Below, piece by piece: positions 3,687 through 64,000 of a DNA stretch of 64,000 bases (positions are counted from its first letter, which is position 1; every line of letters begins with the position of its first letter). Location: contig CAWEXU010000004.1 in the NCBI GenBank assembly GCA_963813075.1, forward strand, positions 160,001-224,000, read 5' to 3'. Source of the DNA: Methanotrichaceae archaeon. GTDB lineage: Archaea; Halobacteriota; Methanosarcinia; Methanotrichales; Methanotrichaceae. Made by a program: the position numbers and the translations under genes. The notes beneath the pieces were generated by a model, which was given only the letters and a program-made list of their open reading frames with translations, was not told where the DNA came from and did not search any database.

Positions 3687-5813
3687 ATGGCCAATGGGCT
3701 CAGGGCGGAATTGATAATTTTTTTAGTTTTAGCACTGCAAGGCTTTGGGGATCTGATAGCAGTAGAGGACGGGCTTTCCAGCAGGGATGCAGGCGAAGTC
3801 AGCTACCAGGTCATCCCCCGCGAGGTCCTTTTCGGCACCCCGGAGAGGGTCGGGGTCCTGATCAGCCCGGATGGCAACTGGCTCAGCTATCTTTCGGCAG
3901 AGAGCGGATACTTCAACATCTGGATCGCTCCTGTGAACAGAACCCTCTCCTCTTCTGATGAGGGTCGGATATCAAAATCCAATAAATCGAATATATCTCG
4001 GGTGGAGCTATCTGGAGCAAGACCGATCACCAATGAGACCATTCGAGGGGTTGAAAGCTATTTTTGGGCCAACGACGGTCGCCATATAGTCTTTTGTCGG
4101 GACACCTTTGGCGATGAGAACTGGCATATCTACTCGTTGGACATAACAACCGGCGAGAAGCTGGACCTGACACCTTTTGATAATGTCAGCTCATATGTGC
4201 AGGCAGCGAGCAGTCAGATTCCAGGAGAGGTCCTGATTGGTCTTAACAACAGGAACCGGTCTTACCACGACCTGTACCTGATAAACATCACCACTGGAAA
4301 GAGGAACCTGATTCTGAGGAATGATCATTTTGCGGGATTCCTGGTCGACGACGACCTGGAAGTGAGGTTGGCCATAAATGTTACGATGGACGGAATGGAA
4401 TACCTGGAGCCTGCCGGCAATGGCTCCTGGACGCCTTTCATGAAGATCGATTACCAGGATAGCGCCACCACCTTCCCCCTGGGATTCGACCGGACGGGAA
4501 ACGTCCTTTATATGTCTGAGGGCCGGGAGAGAAATACTGCAGCACTGCTGGCCAGGGATCTCTTAACGGGAAATACAGAAATCCTGGCCCAGGACCCCAG
4601 ATCCAACCCGGGCCCCACCCTGATTCACCCCAACGATCTTACCGTTCAGGCGGTGAACTTCAACTATTACCGCCATAACTGGACGGTCCTTGACGAATCC
4701 ATCCGCCCTGACCTGGAATATCTGCACCAGCTTGATCCTGGTGACCTGGTGGTGCCCTCTCGCTCATTAGACGACAGCATCTGGATTGCCGGCTTCATAA
4801 GCGATATTGCTCCGGCCAGGTATTATCTGTACGACCGGAGAGCGAAATCCGCCGAGCTTCTCTTCAGCGCTAATAAAGTGCAAGAGAGGCTGGCTCTTTC
4901 GAAGATGCATTGCGCAACCATAAAGTCCCGCGACGGCCTGGACCTGGTCAGCTACTATACCCTCCCACCCTGGGCAGATGAAGACGGCGACGGAATACCA
5001 AATGAGCCACTTCCTATGGTGCTGTGCGTTCACGGCGGACCCTGGGAGAGGGACTCCTGGGGGTTTGACCAAACCCATCAGCTACTGGCCAACCGGGGTT
5101 ATGTAGCCCTCAGCGTGAACTTCCGGGGCTCCTCTGGATTTGGTAAAGACTTCATCAATGCCGGGGATGGAGAATGGGGCAGAAAGATGGAAGACGACCT
5201 TTTAGATGCTGTCCGCTGGTCGACGGAGAACGGGATCGCAGATCCGGAGCGGATCGCCATACTGGGGCTCAGCTACGGCGGTTATGCTACCCTTTCCGCA
5301 CTGGCCAATTCAGGTGATTTATTCGCATGCGGAGTTGATATCTGCGGCCCCTCCAATCTCACCTCGTTTCTCCTTTCCCTGCCCGACTACTGGAAGCCAA
5401 GTTTGGAGGTCAAGCTCAGGAGGATTGGCGACTACAGAACCGAGGAGGGCAGAAGGCTGCTGGATGAAATTTCCCCCCTCAACCGGGCGGATCGGATCGA
5501 AAAGCCTATATTGATAGCGCAGGGGGCAAACGATCCGCGGGTGAATAAGAATGAGTCCGAACAGATCGTCCGCGCCCTGGAAGAGAAAGGCGTCCCGGTG
5601 ACTTATGCCCTCTTTCCGGACGAGGGACACGGTCTTGTCCAGCCGGGGAACGGCCTGGCCTTTTACGCCATCACCGAGGCATTCCTGGCTGAGCACCTGG
5701 GGGGAAGATACGAATCCATAGGCACGGCCCTGAACGGCTCATCCATCACCGTCCCCGTTGGAGCGGATCAGATACCGGGCCTGGCTCAGGCTTTAGCTTA
5801 TAAAACCTCATAA
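3687..5813 (+). CDS. S9 family (prolyl oligopeptidase/acylaminoacyl) peptidase, likely secreted
   Basis: VHGGPW, GLSYGG nucleophile motif, GANDPRV (Asp), DEGH (His), N-terminal propeller region and signal-like N-terminus. Confidence 0.93.
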   Translation: MANGLRAELIIFLVLALQGFGDLIAVEDGLSSRDAGEVSYQVIPREVLFGTPERVGVLISPDGNWLSYLSAESGYFNIWIAPVNRTLSSSDEGRISKSNKSNISRVELSGARPITNETIRGVESYFWANDGRHIVFCRDTFGDENWHIYSLDITTGEKLDLTPFDNVSSYVQAASSQIPGEVLIGLNNRNRSYHDLYLINITTGKRNLILRNDHFAGFLVDDDLEVRLAINVTMDGMEYLEPAGNGSWTPFMKIDYQDSATTFPLGFDRTGNVLYMSEGRERNTAALLARDLLTGNTEILAQDPRSNPGPTLIHPNDLTVQAVNFNYYRHNWTVLDESIRPDLEYLHQLDPGDLVVPSRSLDDSIWIAGFISDIAPARYYLYDRRAKSAELLFSANKVQERLALSKMHCATIKSRDGLDLVSYYTLPPWADEDGDGIPNEPLPMVLCVHGGPWERDSWGFDQTHQLLANRGYVALSVNFRGSSGFGKDFINAGDGEWGRKMEDDLLDAVRWSTENGIADPERIAILGLSYGGYATLSALANSGDLFACGVDICGPSNLTSFLLSLPDYWKPSLEVKLRRIGDYRTEEGRRLLDEISPLNRADRIEKPILIAQGANDPRVNKNESEQIVRALEEKGVPVTYALFPDEGHGLVQPGNGLAFYAITEAFLAEHLGGRYESIGTALNGSSITVPVGADQIPGLAQALAYKTS

Positions 5814-5844: not shown

Positions 5845-6452
5845 TCAGCCTTTGAGAAAGACCGCTTCCACCTGGCTTCGAAGAAGCTCGACCCCCCTCA
5901 CCCTCATCTTCCAGCGGACACTTTTGATTGAGGCTGGCACCAGGGGGTAGAATAGCTCTATTGTCTCCGATTCTGTGAAGTAGTGGGTGATAACTCCCGC
6001 CCCCCGCAGAAATGTTGACTCCTCCACCTCCTGGCCGGTACCCATGCGCATATCATCCCTGGCAAACTCCCGGAAAAACAGCCTTCCACCAGGTTTGAGC
6101 ACTCTTGATACCTCGCCGGCCAGTGCCCTGCGCCCGGAAAGGTAAAGGTGACCGGCCACATGATAGGCGAACACGCCTTCGAAGCTATCGCTTTTGAAAG
6201 GGCAACCTTTTTGCATCGGCCAGGACCGGATCGGAATGGGAAAGGGATCGATTGCACAATTGCAGAGCAGGGAGGGATATGTCCAGGGCAGCGACCCTCC
6301 AGCTTCCGAGGCATAGCGGAGAGGGTCTTGCCGTCTCCGCAGCCAAGCTCCAGGACCCGGGAACCCGCGGGCAGGTCGGGCAGGTTGCGAACACCGCCCC
6401 CCCACAGCCGACCGCGGCGGGAGTAGTCACTATCCCAGGCCTTTATGGTCAT
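5845..6452 (-). CDS. Class I SAM-dependent methyltransferase, two frameshifts (about 6310 and 6198)
   Basis: VLELGCGDG, VAALDIS...LADAKRLPF and RVLKPGG motifs lie in three successive reading frames. Confidence 0.8.
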
Positions 6453-6542
6453 GTTCACCTGGCAGATCATCCCAAAAAACAGATTATATAGGCGCTATGC
6501 ACCAGATTTGGCCAGCGCCTATCCACTTCAATATGTAGCCGA

Positions 6543-15714: not shown

Positions 15715-15805
15715 CGGGCTCGGGGGGATTTGAACCCTCGACCACCTGGTATCTTCATGCAAAAATTTAAAAGCCAGACGCTCTGCCTAACTGAGCTACG
15801 AGCCC
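15715..15805 (-). tRNA. tRNA-Lys(UUU) with 17-nt intron at 37/38 (15751..15767)
   Basis: GGGCTCG/CGAGCCC acceptor, anticodon arm TCTGG-CTTTTA[AATTTTTGCATGAAGAT]A-CCAGG, TTCAAAT loop; BHB central helix CUUU/GAAG; one A-C mismatch in the T stem. Confidence 0.93.
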
Positions 15806-19294: not shown

Positions 19295-19732
19295 ATGACC
19301 GAAATCGCTAACAAGGATGGGGGCAGCGGCGGCCCGGTGGTTCCCAAGAAGCTCGGGCGGATTGCCAGGAAGCTCACCGCCGCCGGCGAGCAGCTGGTGC
19401 TCATCGCCCCGGCTATTCTGCACAGCCAGGCATCGGAACAGATGCTGGCCATCGCCAGGATAGGGAAGCTGGATAAGATACTGGGATACCTCGTTACCAC
19501 CGATAAGAATGTGTATTTCGTCCGGCCGGGGATCGCCTGGGATAGCGTGCGCACAGTGCCCCTGAATGTGATTACCGGGGTGGAGTATGTGGATGAGTTT
19601 CATACCAACACCCTGAAGCTCCTGGTGGGGGAGAGGGCGGAGAAGATAATATTCTACGAGGATATGGATGGAATCAGATTCTATAAGCATATGCAACAAC
19701 TGATGCATAAGGATAAGGCAGAAGACATCTGA
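19295..19732 (+). CDS. PH-domain-like hypothetical protein
   Basis: GYLVTTDKNVYF...VPLNVITGVEY pattern typical of bacterial-type PH domains. Confidence 0.65.
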   Translation: MTEIANKDGGSGGPVVPKKLGRIARKLTAAGEQLVLIAPAILHSQASEQMLAIARIGKLDKILGYLVTTDKNVYFVRPGIAWDSVRTVPLNVITGVEYVDEFHTNTLKLLVGERAEKIIFYEDMDGIRFYKHMQQLMHKDKAEDI

Positions 19733-19829
19733 GTCCAGGCCCTTCGGTATTTTTTGGCTCTTCGCTGTTTCTTGTGGGCTAAAATCAGGTTACTATGGTT
19801 TTGCCTCGAGTTTCGCTTCGTCTCACGGT

Positions 19830-20350
19830 ATGCACTCATGCGCGCGTCTGTGCGCCCACTGCCTCTGGATCCACTGACCCGGGTCAGGGGCCTGGAGCCT
19901 CTGGACTTCTCTCTTGCCGGGCCGACGGTGCAATTGCCCTGTCCGGAGGCGCTCTACCTGGGCCTGGAGCGCTGGGCGGTAACCCGTAACCAGCTGGATG
20001 TGCCGGAGCACAGGCGTTTTTGCCGCTCGCTTATTGTCCAGTATGCCGACCTCCTGCAGGTGCTCGCAAAAGAGGGAACACGGGTGCGCATTGTGGACGT
20101 GGCCGGCAGCCCGAGCTGCGGCGTTGCCACTACGAGCAGCGGCTATGAGGGCGGGCGGGTGCGCGAGTGCGAGCACGAGCATGTGCCCGGACAGGGGATA
20201 TTCATGGAGGAGCTGATTGGGGAGCTGGAGAGGCGCGGCATTCCTTTTGAGGCCGAAGAGGTGGGGAGGGAGTGCATGAATGAGTCCGAGTTCGGGAGCA
20301 TGCCGGGGATCAAGCCCTTCCAGAGAGAGGAGCAGGATCGGTTTGAGTGA
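19830..20350 (+). CDS. TudS/DUF523-related (CD3072-type) Cys-rich putative desulfidase, frameshift near 19865
   Basis: QLPCPE, GSPSCGV, GIFMEEL motifs; the family N-terminal AHCL motif (MHSCARLCAHCL) is in another frame starting at ATG 19830. Confidence 0.75.
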
Positions 20351-20389
20351 TCGCTCAAAAGAAAGGTGATTAGATTTGGCGTTGGCCGT

Positions 20390-20950
20390 CGATGCTTCGG
20401 AGAAATATTAGCATTATTATTCTCCAGCCGGGCCAGGCGAAACTGTGAGATTGGGCGCGGTTATGCTCATCGCCCTCGCCTTTCCGGAAGAGGCACGCCC
20501 AGCACATGTTGCCTGACTATTTGAGCTATCGAATATGTTTGATCTATTCATGCGAAACTGACTTTTTTAGTGGGCGCCGCGAGTCGGCCCTTCGGGCCTC
20601 CCGCGCTATGCTCTGGTCCCCTCAACGCCGGGGTGGCTTGGATAGAGCGATTGATTTGGCTAAGTCTGAATAAATGTGACCGGCATCCCATTGATGTGTG
20701 TCCACGGGCAGGCACACGCGCGCGCGGGCCGGTCGCTGCGGCAGGTCTGCACTGCCTCGGGAAGTGGTGCATTTGGGCCCCTCTGCAAGGATTCGAGCCA
20801 CACCCCACCGGCGCACAAAGACCTGCTGGATCTTGCCTCCTTGCAAGATGCGTCCGGGGACAGGGCCGGGATGGGATATCGGGGCGAAGCGAGAAAGGAG
20901 CCGCTGGCCAGCAAAGGGCTGCCCGGAGGCACAGGCATGTCTGGCCTACG
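20390..20950 (+). ncRNA. Candidate large structured RNA/element, copy 1 (family unknown; ends approximate)
   Basis: No credible ORF; many nested stems with G-U pairs valid on + strand; collinear homology to 48180..48570. Confidence 0.55.
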
Positions 20951-20957
20951 AATACCA

Positions 20958-20964
20958 TTAAATA
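20958..20964 (+). promoter_or_regulatory. Probable TATA box of tRNA-Leu
   Basis: TTAAATA about 33 bp upstream of the mature tRNA 5' end. Confidence 0.5.
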
Positions 20965-20996
20965 CTACTACTGCATGAGATTGGCTGCATCCTTTT

Positions 20997-21081
20997 GCGG
21001 GGATTGCCAAGCCAGGTCAAAGGCGCTGGATTCAGGGTCCAGTCACGAAGGTGTTCGTGGGTTCGAATCCCATTCCCCGCA
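20997..21081 (+). tRNA. tRNA-Leu(CAG)
   Basis: GCGGGGA/TCCCCGC acceptor, CTGGA-TTCAGGG-TCCAG anticodon arm, long variable arm, GTTCGAATCC, discriminator A. Confidence 0.96.
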
Positions 21082-21267
21082 CCTAAATCTAATTTGTTTG
21101 AGTCATTGATCGTTGATTACGTCCTTGATCATAGCTTTTATATAAAAAATTTTGCGATTATTTCTCCGCCCATAGCCCGGACAGATTTCCAGACGGCCAG
21201 AGCCGCTCTGAAAAGGCTTATAAGCATAAATTCCCGGTTATGAATGGTCATAATCAGGAGATTTATC

Positions 21268-21771
21268 ATGGTCAAGTCCAATCCACTGGCAGAATTTGCC
21301 GTATCGAAAGACCGGCTGCTCCAGGCTCTGGCATGCGTAGCCAACCTGGCGGACAGAGCAATAGTGCAGGCCATTGTCCATCCCAAAGATACCATACTGG
21401 GGTTTGCCTTGAGCAATACTCTATTGGATAGTGAGTCCGGGGACCAGATATATGCTTTTTATATAATAGTCCTGGAGGAGATGATGGGTGCAAAATTCAT
21501 GGTCAAAGGAGATGAGTGGCCGTTGTTTTATATCTCATGTTCTGAGCAGTTCATCAACTCCGTCGCCGCTCTGGAGCCCAGAGACAATCAATTCCTCAAG
21601 GTTGAGTTCTTCAGCGTAACCGAGGAGGATGATCCGGATGTGGTCAAGAGCGAGGCATTCATCACCGGCGAGCACAATTCCGCTGTGGGATCCATATTGA
21701 AGCACCAGCCCACCCAGGATGACGAAACCACCCTGGAAGCGGATGAGACGCAGTCTGTGCTTTACAGGTAG
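21268..21771 (+). CDS. Hypothetical protein (possible single DNA-clamp-like domain)
   Basis: AGGAG before ATG 21268, natural composition, downstream hairpin; fold guess from residue periodicity only. Confidence 0.7.
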   Translation: MVKSNPLAEFAVSKDRLLQALACVANLADRAIVQAIVHPKDTILGFALSNTLLDSESGDQIYAFYIIVLEEMMGAKFMVKGDEWPLFYISCSEQFINSVAALEPRDNQFLKVEFFSVTEEDDPDVVKSEAFITGEHNSAVGSILKHQPTQDDETTLEADETQSVLYR

Positions 21772-35583: not shown

Positions 35584-35672
35584 GCCGCCGTGGCTTAGCC
35601 CGGTTAAAGCGGCTGATTCGTAAGATAGTCCGAAAGATCAGCAGTTCATGGGTTCGAATCCCATCGGCGGCT
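35584..35672 (+). tRNA. tRNA-Thr(CGU) with 14-nt intron at 37/38 (35623..35636)
   Basis: GCCGCCG/CGGCGGC acceptor, GCTGA-TTCGTA[AGATAGTCCGAAAG]A-TCAGC, BHB central helix UUCG/CGAA. Confidence 0.94.
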
Positions 35673-43637: not shown

Positions 43638-43713
43638 TCACTTCAACATTCTGATTATCACATAATCTCATTATCTCATAATTTTCCAGTTTGAAGAGCA
43701 CAGGTGTCGCGAG

Positions 43714-45532
43714 ATGAATGAGGGAAGCCAGGCTGCTACTCTGATCGGCATTGTAGCCCTGATCGGCCTTGCAGGGCTCTATTTGACCGGAGGCATTCCA
43801 TTCCTGGAGGAGCCCAGCCAGCAGGAGCCCATCCCGGAGGCGAGCTTTGAGCTTGGAGACTTTTATGTAGACAGCTACCGGGCAGACCTTTACCTCAATG
43901 GCACTCTGATTGAGAATTTCAGCTATCAGATAGATGCCTCCGAAAAATACCGGATGCTCTACAGGTTCTGGAAGATGCCGGTTATCCAGGGAAGGATCGA
44001 TCTGCCCTATATTGAGTTGCTAAATGTTGTGCCCACTCCGGGCGCTGTGCCCTATGTCAGGTACAGCAATAATGCGGTCAAAGTGCTATCGGCAAATGAT
44101 AGCAACTACAGAGAGGAGATCGAGTCCCTGGCAGAGCAGAATGAGGCAGGCTCTTTCTACCCTCAGATGTTCCCCGCCGGTCGATATCAGATGGAGTATG
44201 TCTTTCTTATTCATCCCTTCCTGGAGTGCGATCAGGATTACTGTCACTGGAACCTCATGCTGGCGAATGAGCATCTGCCCTACCGGCAGCTTGCCATCCG
44301 CATTCATGATCCGGACGATCTGATTGTACAGCTATTCACCCACCCAAAGATGGAGTCTTACAAAGAGGGAGACATCTGGGTTATCACTGGAGCCAGCCCC
44401 AGGAATGGGCTGATAGAGGTTGAGATGCTCCTTTTGCCCGCTGCGAAAGAGATCATAGACGGCTTTCCCAGAGAGGTATCCAATGTCTATGAAAAGACCC
44501 ACTCCACTCAAAAGAAGGGTTATATGGGCTCAGACCTATTGCCCGTGCTTCGCTCTTTGGTGGCCGCATTCCCATTGCTGCTGATCTTTCTCTATCTGCT
44601 GTTTGGCAGAGAGAGGCGCTATACAGTGCCCGAGATCGCTCAGCACCGTCCCGGCAAAGAGAAAGCCCTGGCTGGTCAATATGGTATTCAAGGATGATCC
44701 CCATGAATTTGAGCCCGATGGATTCTATGCCACACTGCTGGATTTGCATAAGCGCAATATAATCGAGCTGGGCAGGACATCTTTCACCGAGATTCGCCTT
44801 CTTCCCGGCGATTGGAGCGATATGGACCGCTATGAGAGAAAGGTCCTTGATTTTCTGAGAGACAACTCCACAAAGGATGTTTTTTCGGCCCGCGGGCTGG
44901 AGAACAGGATCAATAATCTGACTAAGTCGCATGACTCAAGAAGGCTGGCCGAGTTGAGGGCAGACATGGAAGGGATACTCCATTATAGAGATGATGACGC
45001 CGTTCGAGAGTTCGTCGCCGGAAGGAATCTATTGGCTTTGGGCTTGAACAAGAAAAAGCTGAGTTCGCCATTCATCTGGGCGGCAATCATCCTGATTTTT
45101 GTATTGGCGCAGGATATCGTATCCAATCCAGCAGCCATAGCATTGGTAATCCTTGCCCTGCAGTCAACAGCAGTGGCATTTGCCCCGTCCACTCTGCTCG
45201 GCCAGTGGAAGAAAGACTACTACAAAGAAAAGCTGGAGTGGGATTCATTCCGGACCTTTTTGGGCGACTACGCCATGATCAGAAAGTATTCTGCAGATGA
45301 CCTTAACATGTGGAAGGAATGGCTGATCTACGGCACAGCACTTGGGGTGGGAGATACGGTGGAGAAGGCGATGATGGACCTGAATATTGCCATTCCCGAG
45401 GCGGCTGCCATACATAACATAGGGATCAGCTTTGTCGATGCCCTCACCGCCAGCATGCCAGATTCAAGCGACTCCGGTGGAGGGTTCGGCTTCGGCGGGG
45501 GAGGGGGAGGAGGCGGCGGTGGGATCCGGTAG
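43714..45532 (+). CDS. DUF2207 family membrane protein, paralog 1 (frameshift near 44635)
   Basis: Joined ORFs 43714..44697 and 44603..45532; ATLLDL, WKEWLIYGTALGV, Gly-rich tail. Confidence 0.85.
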
Positions 45533-45605
45533 TGGCCCAATTCATGGCACGGTATCCTTCCTGGATCACGGAATTCAGGCAAAGGCATCGAGGTGGTGAG
45601 GCAGG

Positions 45606-47428
45606 ATGAACGAAGGGAGCCAGGCGGCTATATTGATTGGCATTGTGGCCCTGATCGGCTTTGGCGGGCTCTATATAACCGGAGGTATTCCATTTTTGGA
45701 GGAGCCCTTCCCGGCAGGCTTTTTCCTGGGGGATGTTTACGTAGAAAGCTATCAGGCGGATCTGTACCTCAACGGTACATTGAGCGAAGAGTTCGACTAC
45801 CGGATAAAAAAATCGGGAGCCTACAGGATGCTCTACCGGAACTGGAAGATGCCCCTTTCTGCGGAGCACATGGTTTTGCCTTACATAGAGCCCCTGGAGA
45901 TCCTTCCTACTCCCGGGGCCGTCCCCTATGTCAAGGACAATACTGGAGCTGTGCAGATATTATCGCCCGCGGACAGCCGCTACAAGAGCGAGGTCGCCTC
46001 CCTGGCAGAGAGGAATGAGGCAGGAGGCTACTATCCCCAGCGATTCACTGCCGGGCAGTATCAGATGGAGTACCTTTTCCGCATTCATCCATACCTTGAG
46101 TGTGACCAGGAGTTCTGCCACTGGAACCTTATGCTGGCGGATGAGCATCTGCCCTACCGGCAAATTGAGATACGCATTCATGATCCCGACGATCTGATTG
46201 TAGAGCTCTTCACCCATCCTCAGATGAGAATGCAAAAGGAGGACAAGATGTGGGTCATCACCGGGGGCAGCCCCAAAGATGAGCTGATAGAGGTTGAGAT
46301 GCTTCTTGTGCCCGGAGCGAAGGAAGGCATTGGGGGCTTTCCCAGAGAGGTCTCCGAATGTCTATCAGAAGACCATCTCCGCCCAGGAAGGGGGCTCAAG
46401 CCTATTGCTCGTGCTGCGCTCTTTGGTGGCAGCACTGCCGTTGCTATTGATTCTCATCTACCTGTTAATTGGCCGGGAGAAGAGATTTACCGTGCCCAGG
46501 GCTCTTTCCACCCCGCCCAGCAAGAGACGTCCCTGGCAGGTTAATATGCTCTTCAAGGGGGATGCATTCGACTTCGATCCCGATGGATTCTATGCCACAT
46601 TGCTGGACCTGCATAAGCGGGATATCATCCGGATAGATACATTATCCGGGACCCAGATCATGGTTCTCTCCCCGTCCGCTACCGGATCTCGATGAGTATG
46701 AGAGGAAGGTGATCGAGTTTCTCCGGGACAACTCCCAGGGGAAAGCGTTCTCAGCTTCTGGCTTTGAGGCGAGAGTGAAATCGCTGGCCCAGTCCAACGA
46801 TACCGGCCAGCTGGCCAGGCTGCGCAGTGCCATGGATGAGATACTGCATTATGTCGATGAAGATATGGTTCGCCGTCATGCGGTGGGCAGGAGCATCAGA
46901 GCCCTGGGAATCAGGGTTCAGAGCAGGCAGCTGATCATTCCACTCATCTGGGGAGCTATTTTCATCGTCCCCTTTTTCCTGGGATCGGGCATCCTGGAAA
47001 ATCCAACTGCAATCACGGCCATGATTCTGACTTTGCAGTCGAGCCTGGCCGCATTTGCTCCCTCCACCCTCTTTGGCCGCTGGAAGGAGGATTACTATAA
47101 AGAGAAGCTGGAATGGGATTCTTTCCGGGCCTTTTTGGGAGACTTTGCCATGATCCAGCGGTATTCACCCAGTGACCTGAATATATGGAAGGAGTGGCTT
47201 ATCTACGGCACAGCTCTCGGGGTAGGGGACAAAGTGGAGAGGGCGTTGAGGGATTTGAACATCCCCATCCCCGAGGCGGTGGCCATCCATACCATTCATA
47301 CCAGCTTCGGCCATGCCTACTCCTCCAGCGTGCCCAGCTCCAGCAGCTCGGGAGGATTTGGCGGGGGAAGCGGGGGCGGATTTGGCGGTGGCGGCGGTGG
47401 GGGAGGAGGCGGAGGAGGGGCGAGGTGA
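45606..47428 (+). CDS. DUF2207 family membrane protein, paralog 2 (frameshifts near 46360 and 46685)
   Basis: Joined ORFs 45606..46544, 46294..46695, 46709..47428; collinear with paralog 1. Confidence 0.85.
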
Positions 47429-47754
47429 AGCCCTCCCTTCACTCTTCGCCCGGCGATTTAGGAACTATTATGAGCAGTATCTGCGCATCGAATCCGGTCC
47501 CTTGAGCGGAGGAAGACTCCTGCAGAACTGGCCCGGGCCGGATGAAAACCCATTATTCCCATGGCACTATCACTATCTATTGCCTTTATCAGAGGAGAGG
47601 CAAAAGATTGTCGATATGATTTATTATGAACTTTTCTTAAATAGGTTTAATTGAAAGACCCAGGATACTTATCAAATTGGGTTCAGAGAAAAGGTCGAGC
47701 TTAAATAAGAGAAGATTTCGAGAGCGCATCAATGATGATTCAAGGAGAGTAAAT

Positions 47755-48179: not shown

Positions 48180-48570
48180 GGCAGGAGAATCTCATTGATA
48201 GATTTCCTTGGCAATGATCGCTTCAGCAGCTTTGCAGCGGGCTCCGCGCGCGAAAAGACGCGCGATACGTTCCGGGCGCCCCTCAAGGCCGGGCAGGCTT
48301 GGACAAAACAATGGAGAAAGGTTCAGCTTGAGTCCAAGTGTTGTGGAGATTACCCACAGACTACTGAACTGTTATCGAACAAGCCATACCCAATCCCTTC
48401 TGGCAGTCTTAGTCCCTGTTTTTGTGGAACCTTGCTCTCCTGTGCCCAGTGCCGGGTGAGGCCGTGGAAACGGGCATTCCTCATCTCCAGCCCTCCTGTG
48501 CCCGCTGGCGCACGCATGTGCGGGCGAAGGCGGGTGAAGGTGCAGATTATGCAACTTCATATTGCTGGAA
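48180..48570 (+). ncRNA. Candidate large structured RNA/element, copy 2 (family unknown; ends approximate)
   Basis: Multiple stems incl. CCGT-GGAA-ACGG GNRA hairpin; 23/27 identity core and collinear blocks shared with copy 1. Confidence 0.55.
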
Positions 48571-49563
48571 TTAGTCCGTAAATTCCAGTTCTTCGGCCCT
48601 GGCAAATGCTGCATCGGCCTCTGTAGTGCGACCGAGCGACTGGAGTGTGAAGGCTTTGCCGAACCAGGCGTTAGCATGTTGCGGATTGAGCTCGATGGCA
48701 TTATTGAATGCTTGCAGTGCCCCATCATAGTTACCTTGCAGGCCTAGAGCAACGCCTTTGTTGACCCAAGCATCCGCTAATTTTGGGTCGATCTCGATGG
48801 CCTTATCCAATGTCTGTAGCGCCTCATCATATTTGCCTTGTTGACCTAGAGCAATGCCTTTGTTGCTCCAGGCTGCCGCATATTTAGGATTGATTTCGAT
48901 AGCCTTATTATATAATTGGATGGCCTCATCGTAATTGCCCTCACCATTGAGAGAATTTCCTTTGTTGTACCATGCTACTGACAATTGCGGATCAATCTCG
49001 ATGGCCCTATTGTATGCCTTGATAGCCTCATCATATTTGCCTTGATCATAGAGAACCATGCCTTTGCCGTTCCAGGCATCTCCATAATTTGGATCGATCT
49101 CGATGGCCCTGTTGTATGCCTGAATGGATTCATCGAACTTACCCAGGAAATAGAGTGCATTTCCTTTATTGGACCAGGTCACTGCCGATTGAGGATCAAT
49201 CTCGATTACCTTATCGAATGTCACCAGTGCTTCATCATACTCTCCTAGTTGGCCGAGAGCAGTGCCTTTGTTATTCAATACAACTGACAATTGTGGATCG
49301 ATCTCGATGGCCCTATCGTATGCCTTGATGGCTTCATCGTATTTGCCAAGATTGGTGAGAGCAAGGCCTTTATTGTTCCAGGCTTCTACATATTGTGGAT
49401 TTAGCTCGATTGCTTCATTAAGAGCGTCGATTGATTCGTTGTACTTGTTTTCGAATAAGAGCGCATTCCCTTTCTCGAGCCAATCCTTTGCCGTCGTCTG
49501 CCCAAATGCTGGAGCACTTAGCATTGCCAAAATCATCAATATCTGAACAAGTTTTGCTTTAAT
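48571..49563 (-). CDS. Secreted tetratricopeptide repeat protein
   Basis: About 8 34-aa repeats AWxNKGxAL...YDEAI..YNRAIEIDP; signal peptide; start placed at in-frame ATT 49563 after GGAGG (ORF track starts at 49539). Confidence 0.92.
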   Translation of the reverse strand: MKAKLVQILMILAMLSAPAFGQTTAKDWLEKGNALLFENKYNESIDALNEAIELNPQYVEAWNNKGLALTNLGKYDEAIKAYDRAIEIDPQLSVVLNNKGTALGQLGEYDEALVTFDKVIEIDPQSAVTWSNKGNALYFLGKFDESIQAYNRAIEIDPNYGDAWNGKGMVLYDQGKYDEAIKAYNRAIEIDPQLSVAWYNKGNSLNGEGNYDEAIQLYNKAIEINPKYAAAWSNKGIALGQQGKYDEALQTLDKAIEIDPKLADAWVNKGVALGLQGNYDGALQAFNNAIELNPQHANAWFGKAFTLQSLGRTTEADAAFARAEELEFTD

Positions 49564-50575: not shown

Positions 50576-50975
50576 TCACTTCACCTTTTGCATCTCTACA
50601 TATCGATTGCATTACATCCTTGGTAGCATTCCAAAGTGCCAACATAGTAAGTATGGATTTCAAAGATGGCGATTCCAAAGCTGATCTCGTAGTTCAGGAT
50701 GCGTTGTCAAAGAGCTTCTTTGCCGTAAAGCCTTTGAAGATCTGGCAATGACAACAGGAGAAATAGGTCAGCTGTCATGAAGAGGTGAACATGATCCGGC
50801 AGGATCTCTGATTGATCAATGTAATTCCCTTCCGCTTTGCTATCAATTCATGCACCAATGAAGGTCTTCGGCGATTGAACCAGTAAGAACCTTCCTTCGA
50901 TACTTTGTTGACCATACAAAGTGGTAATACACGTTATGGAGACCTCTTGCGCTTATCCAATGCTCTGCTAGTCAT
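50576..50975 (-). pseudogene. tnpA: IS200-type Y1 transposase tnpA remnant
   Basis: Across frames: YHFVWSTKYRRKVL, HUH motif PDHVHLF, FKGFTAKKLF, HPELRDQLWNRHL then in-frame stop, YYVGT, RYVEMQK. Confidence 0.87.
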
Positions 50976-63563: not shown

Positions 63564-64000
63564 TCATAAATTATCCAATAATTGACCCAGGCCCTCATCT
63601 ATAGCGGTGAAAGGTCTCCAGCCAAGGATGCCTTTGGCCTTTTCGATATTTGCATAGCAATCCATTATTTCATTTCTGCGCCTCTCTCCTTGATAGACTA
63701 CCCTGATCTTTGATCCATGCTCTGAGCCATGCTTGGAGCCATGCTCTGATCCACGCCCTAATCCACGCTCTGATCCATGTTCTGATCCATGTTCTGATCC
63801 ATTTTCTGATCCAAAATTTGATCCATACTTTGACTCATATATCCTTATGATTATATTTATTATCTCTCTGACGCTATAACTCTGTCCACATCCAATATTG
63901 AATATATCAAAATCGCCCTGGTATTCGCCTGCCTTGATATATGCATCGATCATGTCTGTAATATAGACGAAATCCCTTTTCGGCTCGGAATCTCTCAAAA
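63564..64000 (-). CDS. NAD-dependent epimerase/dehydratase, 3' part (5' end beyond the window)
   Basis: RDFVYITD, FNIGCG, KAKGILGWRP...EGL. Confidence 0.85.
   Translation of the reverse strand, partial: LRDSEPKRDFVYITDMIDAYIKAGEYQGDFDIFNIGCGQSYSVREIINIIIRIYESKYGSNFGSENGSEHGSEHGSERGLGRGSEHGSKHGSEHGSKIRVVYQGERRRNEIMDCYANIEKAKGILGWRPFTAIDEGLGQLLDNL
63711..63830. repeat. In-frame 12-bp tandem repeat, 10 degenerate units
   Basis: Consensus TGATCCATGYTC on + strand, encoding (S-E/K-H-G)n. Confidence 0.92.

Follow-up and report, generated by a model that had tools for sequence, protein, structure and literature searches.

A genus-specific two-hairpin repeat upstream of a tRNA-Leu gene in a Methanotrichaceae archaeon is associated with defence genes and rearrangement points

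The region at positions 20390 to 20950 of the window, by which we mean the whole 64,000-nucleotide stretch of DNA analysed, is a mosaic, and its core at positions 20563-20644 is a copy of an 82-base repeat with two hairpins. A search of 61 genomes split the region into this multicopy core and a tRNA promoter that is found genus-wide (about 20926-21000). The region is preceded by an open reading frame on the + strand (19838..20350) that is weakly related to TudS (NF045597, 81 bits, below the cut-off of 130) and that adjoins the tRNA promoter in genomes with an empty site. Next, also on the + strand, are a D motif (20384..20394), which is GTTGA-like, here GTCGA, and was recognised with nhmmer as the remnant of a preceding repeat unit; a TATA-like box (20402..20409) with one mismatch against the family form, supported by its spacing and the A+T profile; and the C motif of the repeat unit (20419..20434), 46 of which lie within 400 bp of a B hairpin genome-wide. 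Transcription is predicted to start near positions 20428-20430. In the nhmmer search, the stretch 20360-20450 matches the flanks of other copies, and about 20372-20446 is another module of the same repeat family.

The variable spacer y (20435..20562, + strand) has no consensus structure, and this version of it was found only in the orthologous locus of genome G005. The left edge of the conserved core, seen as an alignment edge, is a T-run followed by GTGG (20563..20573, + strand), and ten metagenome contigs have loose ends at position 20563. The core continues on the + strand with hairpin A (20578..20605), which has a CGCG stem and an apex variable in length and sequence, and with hairpin B (20615..20644), the most conserved part, in which a GGY/GCT lower stem, a 2-nt bulge, and a 4-bp upper stem carry the loop UCAACGCC, followed by TGGATA. 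The right flank (20645..20724, + strand) is locus specific and in common with G005, its first bases also resembling G027 and G079, and is followed by GC-rich filler (about 20725..20925), for which neither the genome nor the loci compared, G005 included, contain a homologue. The promoter and leader of the tRNA-Leu gene (20926..20996, + strand), with a TATA-like sequence at 20958-20964, are conserved genus-wide and lead into tRNA-Leu(CAG) (20997..21083, + strand). A second, diverged core of hairpins A and B lies at 48245..48305 on the + strand, beside an islet of TPR, UPF0150, and DUF433 genes. The copy upstream of tRNA-Leu is probably old and decayed around its conserved core.

The initial annotation had read the region as a single, densely base-paired RNA of 560 nt. 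The stems that it named sit where it placed them, and most of them fold once excised; its non-coding call also holds, the six overlapping open reading frames scoring between -0.35 and +0.01 per codon in a dicodon model trained on the own genome, and the Rfam covariance models matched the tRNA only. These findings fit one large structured RNA, but the pairing is not denser than expected by chance. Compared with shuffled sequences, the whole 561 nt fold with a z score of +0.02 on the + strand and +0.72 on the - strand, 49 of 100 shuffles fold as well as the + strand, and none of 19 sliding 120-nt windows reached a z score of -2 or better on either strand. Among the excised stems, which were chosen post hoc, only 20399-20425 and 20830-20849 lie beyond a z score of -2. 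Stems outside the core are not conserved: at the closest orthologous locus, in G005, most of the named stems are disrupted, with the CAGGC arm deleted, TGGGCG/CGCCCA broken, and the 3' arm of GTGACCGGC absent. Moreover, 200 bases are unique, strain contigs skip parts of the region, and the parts differ in their distribution. The model of one 560-nt RNA is thus largely refuted, and we regard it as extremely improbable.

The suggestion that the region is a structured mobile or repeated element came near the truth for about 270 bases of it (20384-20644, + strand). Covariation corrects the pairing register proposed at 20611-20633, placing the loop UCAACGCC at 20622-20629, where it is closed by CCCC/GGGG. 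A second copy had also been proposed, which we assume to be 48245-48305, the sole lookalike found in the window; it has only the hairpin core in common with the first. A pseudogene origin of the flanks was rejected, given that tblastx returned noise only and a profile of the DNA upstream of empty sites matched nothing within the insert. Contigs of two RNA runs cover the neighbouring genes and are blank over 19503-21506, the tRNA included, so that this gap is not informative on expression.

A full repeat unit is composed of a TATA-like box, the C motif, the unstructured spacer y, a T- or pyrimidine-run, hairpin A, hairpin B, TGGATA, and GTTGA. The TATA-like box lies at -16 in 36 of 53 units and at -18 in 8 of 53, a spacing which resembles that of the leaderless rimK promoter. 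Judged by the archaeal consensus, the TATA-C module is a putative promoter, which in some units would act outward; a scan for sigma-70 promoters and terminators, unsuited to archaea, found nothing. Spacer y is homologous across clades and lacks a consensus fold, with a mean z score of -0.54 (47 of the 53 units). The stem of hairpin A is kept, and its apex varies between a 6-nt loop and a second helix, for which one two-sided change was seen (5 of 25 sequences).

The strongest mutual-information signal is given by pair -1:14, which closes the upper stem of hairpin B and, in 118 copies, is C-G in 71, G-C in 36, T-G in 4, T-A in 1, and unpaired in 6; conservation within the search pattern is partly circular, and position -1 lies outside that pattern. 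In 66 aligned copies, 90.7% of the cells pair, compared with 28-52% when the partners are slid. Two-sided changes occur in only 2 of 14 pairs, a number matched by 213 of 500 shuffles and in which one inherited change is counted many times. The folding z scores of the core are -0.17 (+ strand) and -0.67 (- strand), and that of the copy upstream of tRNA-Leu is +0.95. The two-hairpin structure is therefore plausible and unproven. The G-U pairs, together with one-sided C-to-U changes, weakly favour the + strand, so that the strand proposed for the large RNA weakly holds for the core. In 75 of 115 copies, a fixed inverted pair TCAAC...GTTGA lies at +40 to +42. A pseudoknot between the loop and GTTGA is conceivable, the complementarity exceeding that of shuffles (11.7 versus 10.3), with no two-sided change. 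A subfamily has a CCAC/GTGG hairpin with the loop TCCAGGCC (G000:C4:91230, C17:133673 and 134984, C5:142622, and C30:398468); the hairpin that comes next resembles a reversed type I-E CRISPR repeat lacking the handle.

With a profile built from 31 copies, the own genome yields 51 matches in 23 clusters, and 13 of the 14 multi-copy clusters have a uniform orientation. The hairpin-B pattern is present in 41 of 58 further genomes of the genus, in 1 of 46 from the rest of the family, and in none of 196 from other families, and the reversed pattern used as a control gave zero matches. The depth of public DNA contigs over 20505-20671 is 368 and 627 in two runs, compared with 4-16 in the adjoining bins, and loose contig ends are found at both core edges (20563 and 20644). 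Viral contigs, phages, and plasmids searched gave 0 matches. Since most named records with the repeat are Methanothrix or unclassified Methanosarcinales, the host genus appears to be Methanothrix. Six short repeat-bearing contigs are assigned to other taxa, probably through misbinning; one of them is 89% identical to the own csa3/cas6 locus.

Fifteen of the 20 loci in the own genome are near a Pfam match for HicAB, PIN, ParE, HEPN, Cas, Mrr, or type I restriction, and one further locus contains a CRISPR array. The same holds for other clades, where DarT/Macro, Fic, TumE, and TaqI-like domains are added. In a small control of 58 window proteins, defence matches were confined to the surroundings of the second copy, with the exception of one PIN_6 protein. 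The copy upstream of tRNA-Leu has no defence gene adjacent. The genus-specific structured repeat and its tie to defence-gene turnover are real, and the family is apparently undescribed: the Rfam covariance models gave no repeat match at 11 loci, and the literature searched holds no description of it, with room left for supplements and subscription papers. The main passages of PMC3372372 do not mention Methanosaeta, and its supplement may list such repeats; Methanothrix does not appear in the lists in the accessible part of PMC12306157.

For several copies, the last repeat of a CRISPR array is about 150 bp away, with the leader and cas2 at the opposite end of the array. The last CRISPR repeat ends just short of its final eight bases and is followed by a TATA-C module pointing into the array (L043:1420-1470; L090:3440-3500, 4830-4880, and 6410-6460); this module could be an antisense promoter at the trailer end. 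Truncated CRISPR repeats that stand alone and have the same TATA-C join are found at several array-less loci, and in another clade, lone degenerate CRISPR repeats are about as far away. Of 165 copies, 116 gave a call for the 3' neighbour and 49 gave none; this neighbour is antisense in 80 of the 116, where kin are not independent, and in 15 of 25 cases in the own genome, which is not significant. Other observations at these loci include family A DNA polymerase genes that end about 200 bp before a copy, beside CRISPR arrays (L039:7042-8103 and L043:18-1019), an IS110 element within two CRISPR arrays (L038:6324-8315 and L039:4600-6590), and fragments of cas1 and cas2 with a TnpB gene in between (L041:4960-6072). 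A multicopy protein family whose N-terminal domain is acylphosphatase-like and is followed by a long tail also recurs beside copies (L042:4308-4835, L045:2155-3371, L171, L185, and L290).

Each full unit might be a small RNA gene transcribed from its TATA-C promoter, the product being either 100-140 nt long and ending at the T-run or roughly 230 nt long and running through hairpins A and B. Such an RNA could be antisense to defence genes that are convergent with the unit and to CRISPR arrays. The fixed TATA-to-C spacing, the G-U pairs on the + strand, the antisense 3' neighbours, the junction of TATA-C with the truncated last CRISPR repeat, and the gene-free tandem arrays upstream of tRNA-Leu are consistent with small RNA genes. 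However, the spacer has many indels in addition to lacking a consensus fold, the G005 orthologue has no TATA-C, a T-run of about 6-10 bases in this clade stands between the promoter and the hairpins, and Rfam matches are absent from 11 loci, so that we consider small RNA genes possible and rather unlikely.

Filled and empty sites were compared at 36 loci chosen by their tRNA promoter sequence, two of which have less than 200 nt upstream and not all of which are confirmed as the same tRNA. Ten of these are empty, the upstream open reading frame ending about 110-130 nt before the TATA box with no insert, and 11, the own genome included, have hairpin B in one to three copies that all point the same way. 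The order found in the window (open reading frame, TATA-C, spacer, hairpin A, hairpin B, and promoter) recurs in G027 and G030, and G079 has repeat arrays before two tRNA-Leu genes. In the own genome, a copy lies within 2.5 kb of only 2 of 52 ARAGORN calls, both of them tRNA-Leu. By eye, neither terminal inverted repeats nor a target duplication was found between filled and empty sites. The upstream open reading frame has an alternative tail of 24 codons in some genomes (window 20276-20350; L002, L018, L207, and L212), which looks like the end of a small archaeal antitoxin and may point to a lost cassette. A second repeat family with 9-bp CACAGAG-type units, sometimes arranged as long inverted repeats, occurs in the same hotspots (L010 and L016-L019 upstream of tRNA, L077, L153, and L156).

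The repeat is associated with rearrangement points. Two paralogous arrays in the own genome differ by one two-gene operon and one repeat, the join having about 60 extra bases and no clean crossover inside the core. An Fe-S gene and its adjacent copy are inverted in G074 versus G010, and a synteny break between G000 and G005 falls at a repeat array. Genes joined via one copy in G005 and G031 are on separate contigs in G000, each of them beside copies. At the rimK locus, the core begins at the terminal T-run of the upstream gene in G031 and is trimmed in others. The left flank shows almost no linkage with the core, which hints weakly at exchange close to the T-run. The tandem duplications in G022 end at microhomologies with no fixed site, and in public contigs the joints lie within repeats, so that cassette circles or skips are not discernible. 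The G022 units themselves (L090:3200-7700, L088, and L092) are composed of a cas2 remnant, a leader, a mini-array, and the repeat, with spacers differing per array. The region upstream of rimK (L093-L122) is a genus-wide insertion hotspot: in most of 30 loci, DNA of unrelated sequence meets the conserved promoter at one fixed position.

We lean towards the view that the repeat is a genus-specific, BIME-like mosaic that serves as a portable recombination joint for the gain, loss, inversion, and movement of defence and other accessory genes. The copies would offer common hairpin-forming DNA for exchange, the hairpins presumably forming on the + strand when it is single stranded. Host recombination between copies could then add, remove, or invert accessory modules, perhaps assisted by a hairpin-binding factor, none having been found here, and the exchange itself may spread copies and homogenise the core. 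Alternatively, the repeats and the defence genes could merely accumulate in the same permissive sites.

A mobilising enzyme was searched for among 335 neighbours (147, being 145 of 157 called plus 2 added; 106 of 118; and 82 of 181 cluster representatives), which include no PF00589 (tyrosine recombinase) or PF01797 (Y1 transposase) gene. Two IS110 and three TnpB genes among them look like later insertions. In the genome, which is 83% complete, no IntI integrase was found, and the single tyrosine recombinase reaches 85 bits for TIGR02249 against a cut-off of 265. These results weigh against the core being the site of a dedicated, non-integron cassette system served in trans by a putative recombinase, as do the ragged cassette ends; the joints in public contigs, which lie within repeats, are uninformative. 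Such a system would fit the gene-site-gene arrays in one orientation with toxin-antitoxin cassettes, the fixed TCAAC...GTTGA pair, the sharp core edges, and a weak loss of linkage at the T-run and the foot of hairpin A; on balance, we find it distinctly unlikely. It is likewise unlikely, if slightly less so, that the repeat is the attachment site of a new chromosome-wide archaeal cassette system with a single-strand hairpin, a new recombinase, and promoters with antisense tuning, a putative system which would collect and shuffle toxin-antitoxin, restriction, and CRISPR modules.

The three Y1 proteins examined are IS200-type TnpA without a RAYT model match, and no A- or B-like hairpins or core matches flank their genes. 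Movement of the repeat by the IS200 transposases of the genome, as a non-autonomous IS200/IS605- or REP-type element, therefore appears very unlikely, despite the imperfect hairpins, the T-rich left edge, and the GTGG that 21 of 118 copies have 3 nt before hairpin A. GTAG or GTGG is found within 12 nt of the foot of hairpin A in 28 of the 118 copies, at 3-6 nt; 16 copies lack hairpin A, and 74 of the 102 that have it show neither motif.

The portable joint that we favour resembles REP/BIME elements, which the accessible sections of PMC2817692 and PMC6006769 describe as taxon-specific, extragenic, multicopy imperfect hairpins in modular mosaics and strain-variable clusters. In the latter source, GTAG or GTGG lies 0-2 nt 5' of the hairpin foot, whereas here these motifs are in the minority and outside that distance. 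Compared with REP/BIME elements as portrayed there, the repeat differs further in having direct units in 13 of 14 clusters rather than alternating ones, about 50 copies rather than over 100, units of 135-380 bp, and no RAYT gene flanked by inverted copies in the 83% complete genome. It is also archaeal and tied to defence genes, and some units have a TATA-like box.

The arrays are similar to attC arrays and CALINs, as presented in the main text of 10.1101/2022.02.06.479319, in that their sites share one orientation and lie between small accessory genes, among them many toxin-antitoxin genes; that main text contains no Methanosarcin-, Methanotri-, or Methanosaeta. As in attC, an AAC...GTT pair is present, and the hairpin tends to be on the strand opposite most genes, with the gene bias of 80 of 116 overall set against 15 of 25 in the own genome. 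An attC site has the anatomy R''-L''...L'-R' with 5-6-nt spacers and is 57 bp or longer, whereas in the repeat AAC...GTT spans 48 bp and the spacers measure about 0-1 and 8-9 nt. The alignments furthermore show conservation past GTT, in contrast to attC, and the repeat occurs in 23 scattered clusters without IntI. In the way it works, the repeat is akin to a BIME-type mosaic, and its layout is similar to that of attC arrays, but it is a member of neither class.

Pneumococcal BOX, neisserial NIME, and Correia elements are repeats built of modules that occupy variable intergenic loci, and some of them have promoters directed outward. Compared by description only, the repeat is likewise modular, intergenic, and located at variable loci, but no terminal inverted repeats or target duplication were seen in it by eye. 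HDV-like and theta ribozymes have a short stem with an 8-nt loop that starts with UC and has a G at position 6, and the repeat shares this stem and loop and, in some copies, lies near tRNA genes. The HDV-like fold was rejected, with P1 and P2 pairing of 11.3 versus 10.9 and 13.1 versus 13.0 in shuffles (115 copies) and no Rfam match. A Xer/dif site was rejected as well, since one arm resembles an archaeal dif arm and the other does not.

Methanothrix is a main acetate-to-methane organism in digesters and sediments, and mosaic repeats of the BIME kind have been described mainly from bacteria. A conserved hairpin repeat that marks defence-gene turnover can help to locate defence loci and to type strains, and it accounts for the assembly breaks at its copies. 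If an enzyme or a transcript were found, the repeat would represent a new archaeal cassette system or a new multicopy RNA.

Elsewhere in the window, the islet of TPR, UPF0150, and DUF433 genes contains an IS200 transposase fragment with an internal stop codon (50843-50938). Two tRNA genes have introns, namely, tRNA-Thr(CGT) at 35584-35672 and tRNA-Lys(TTT) at 15715-15805, and DUF2207 gene pairs are duplicated at 43700-47430. Coding repeats are found in a TPR gene (48643-49493) and as a 12-bp tandem repeat at 63708-63839.
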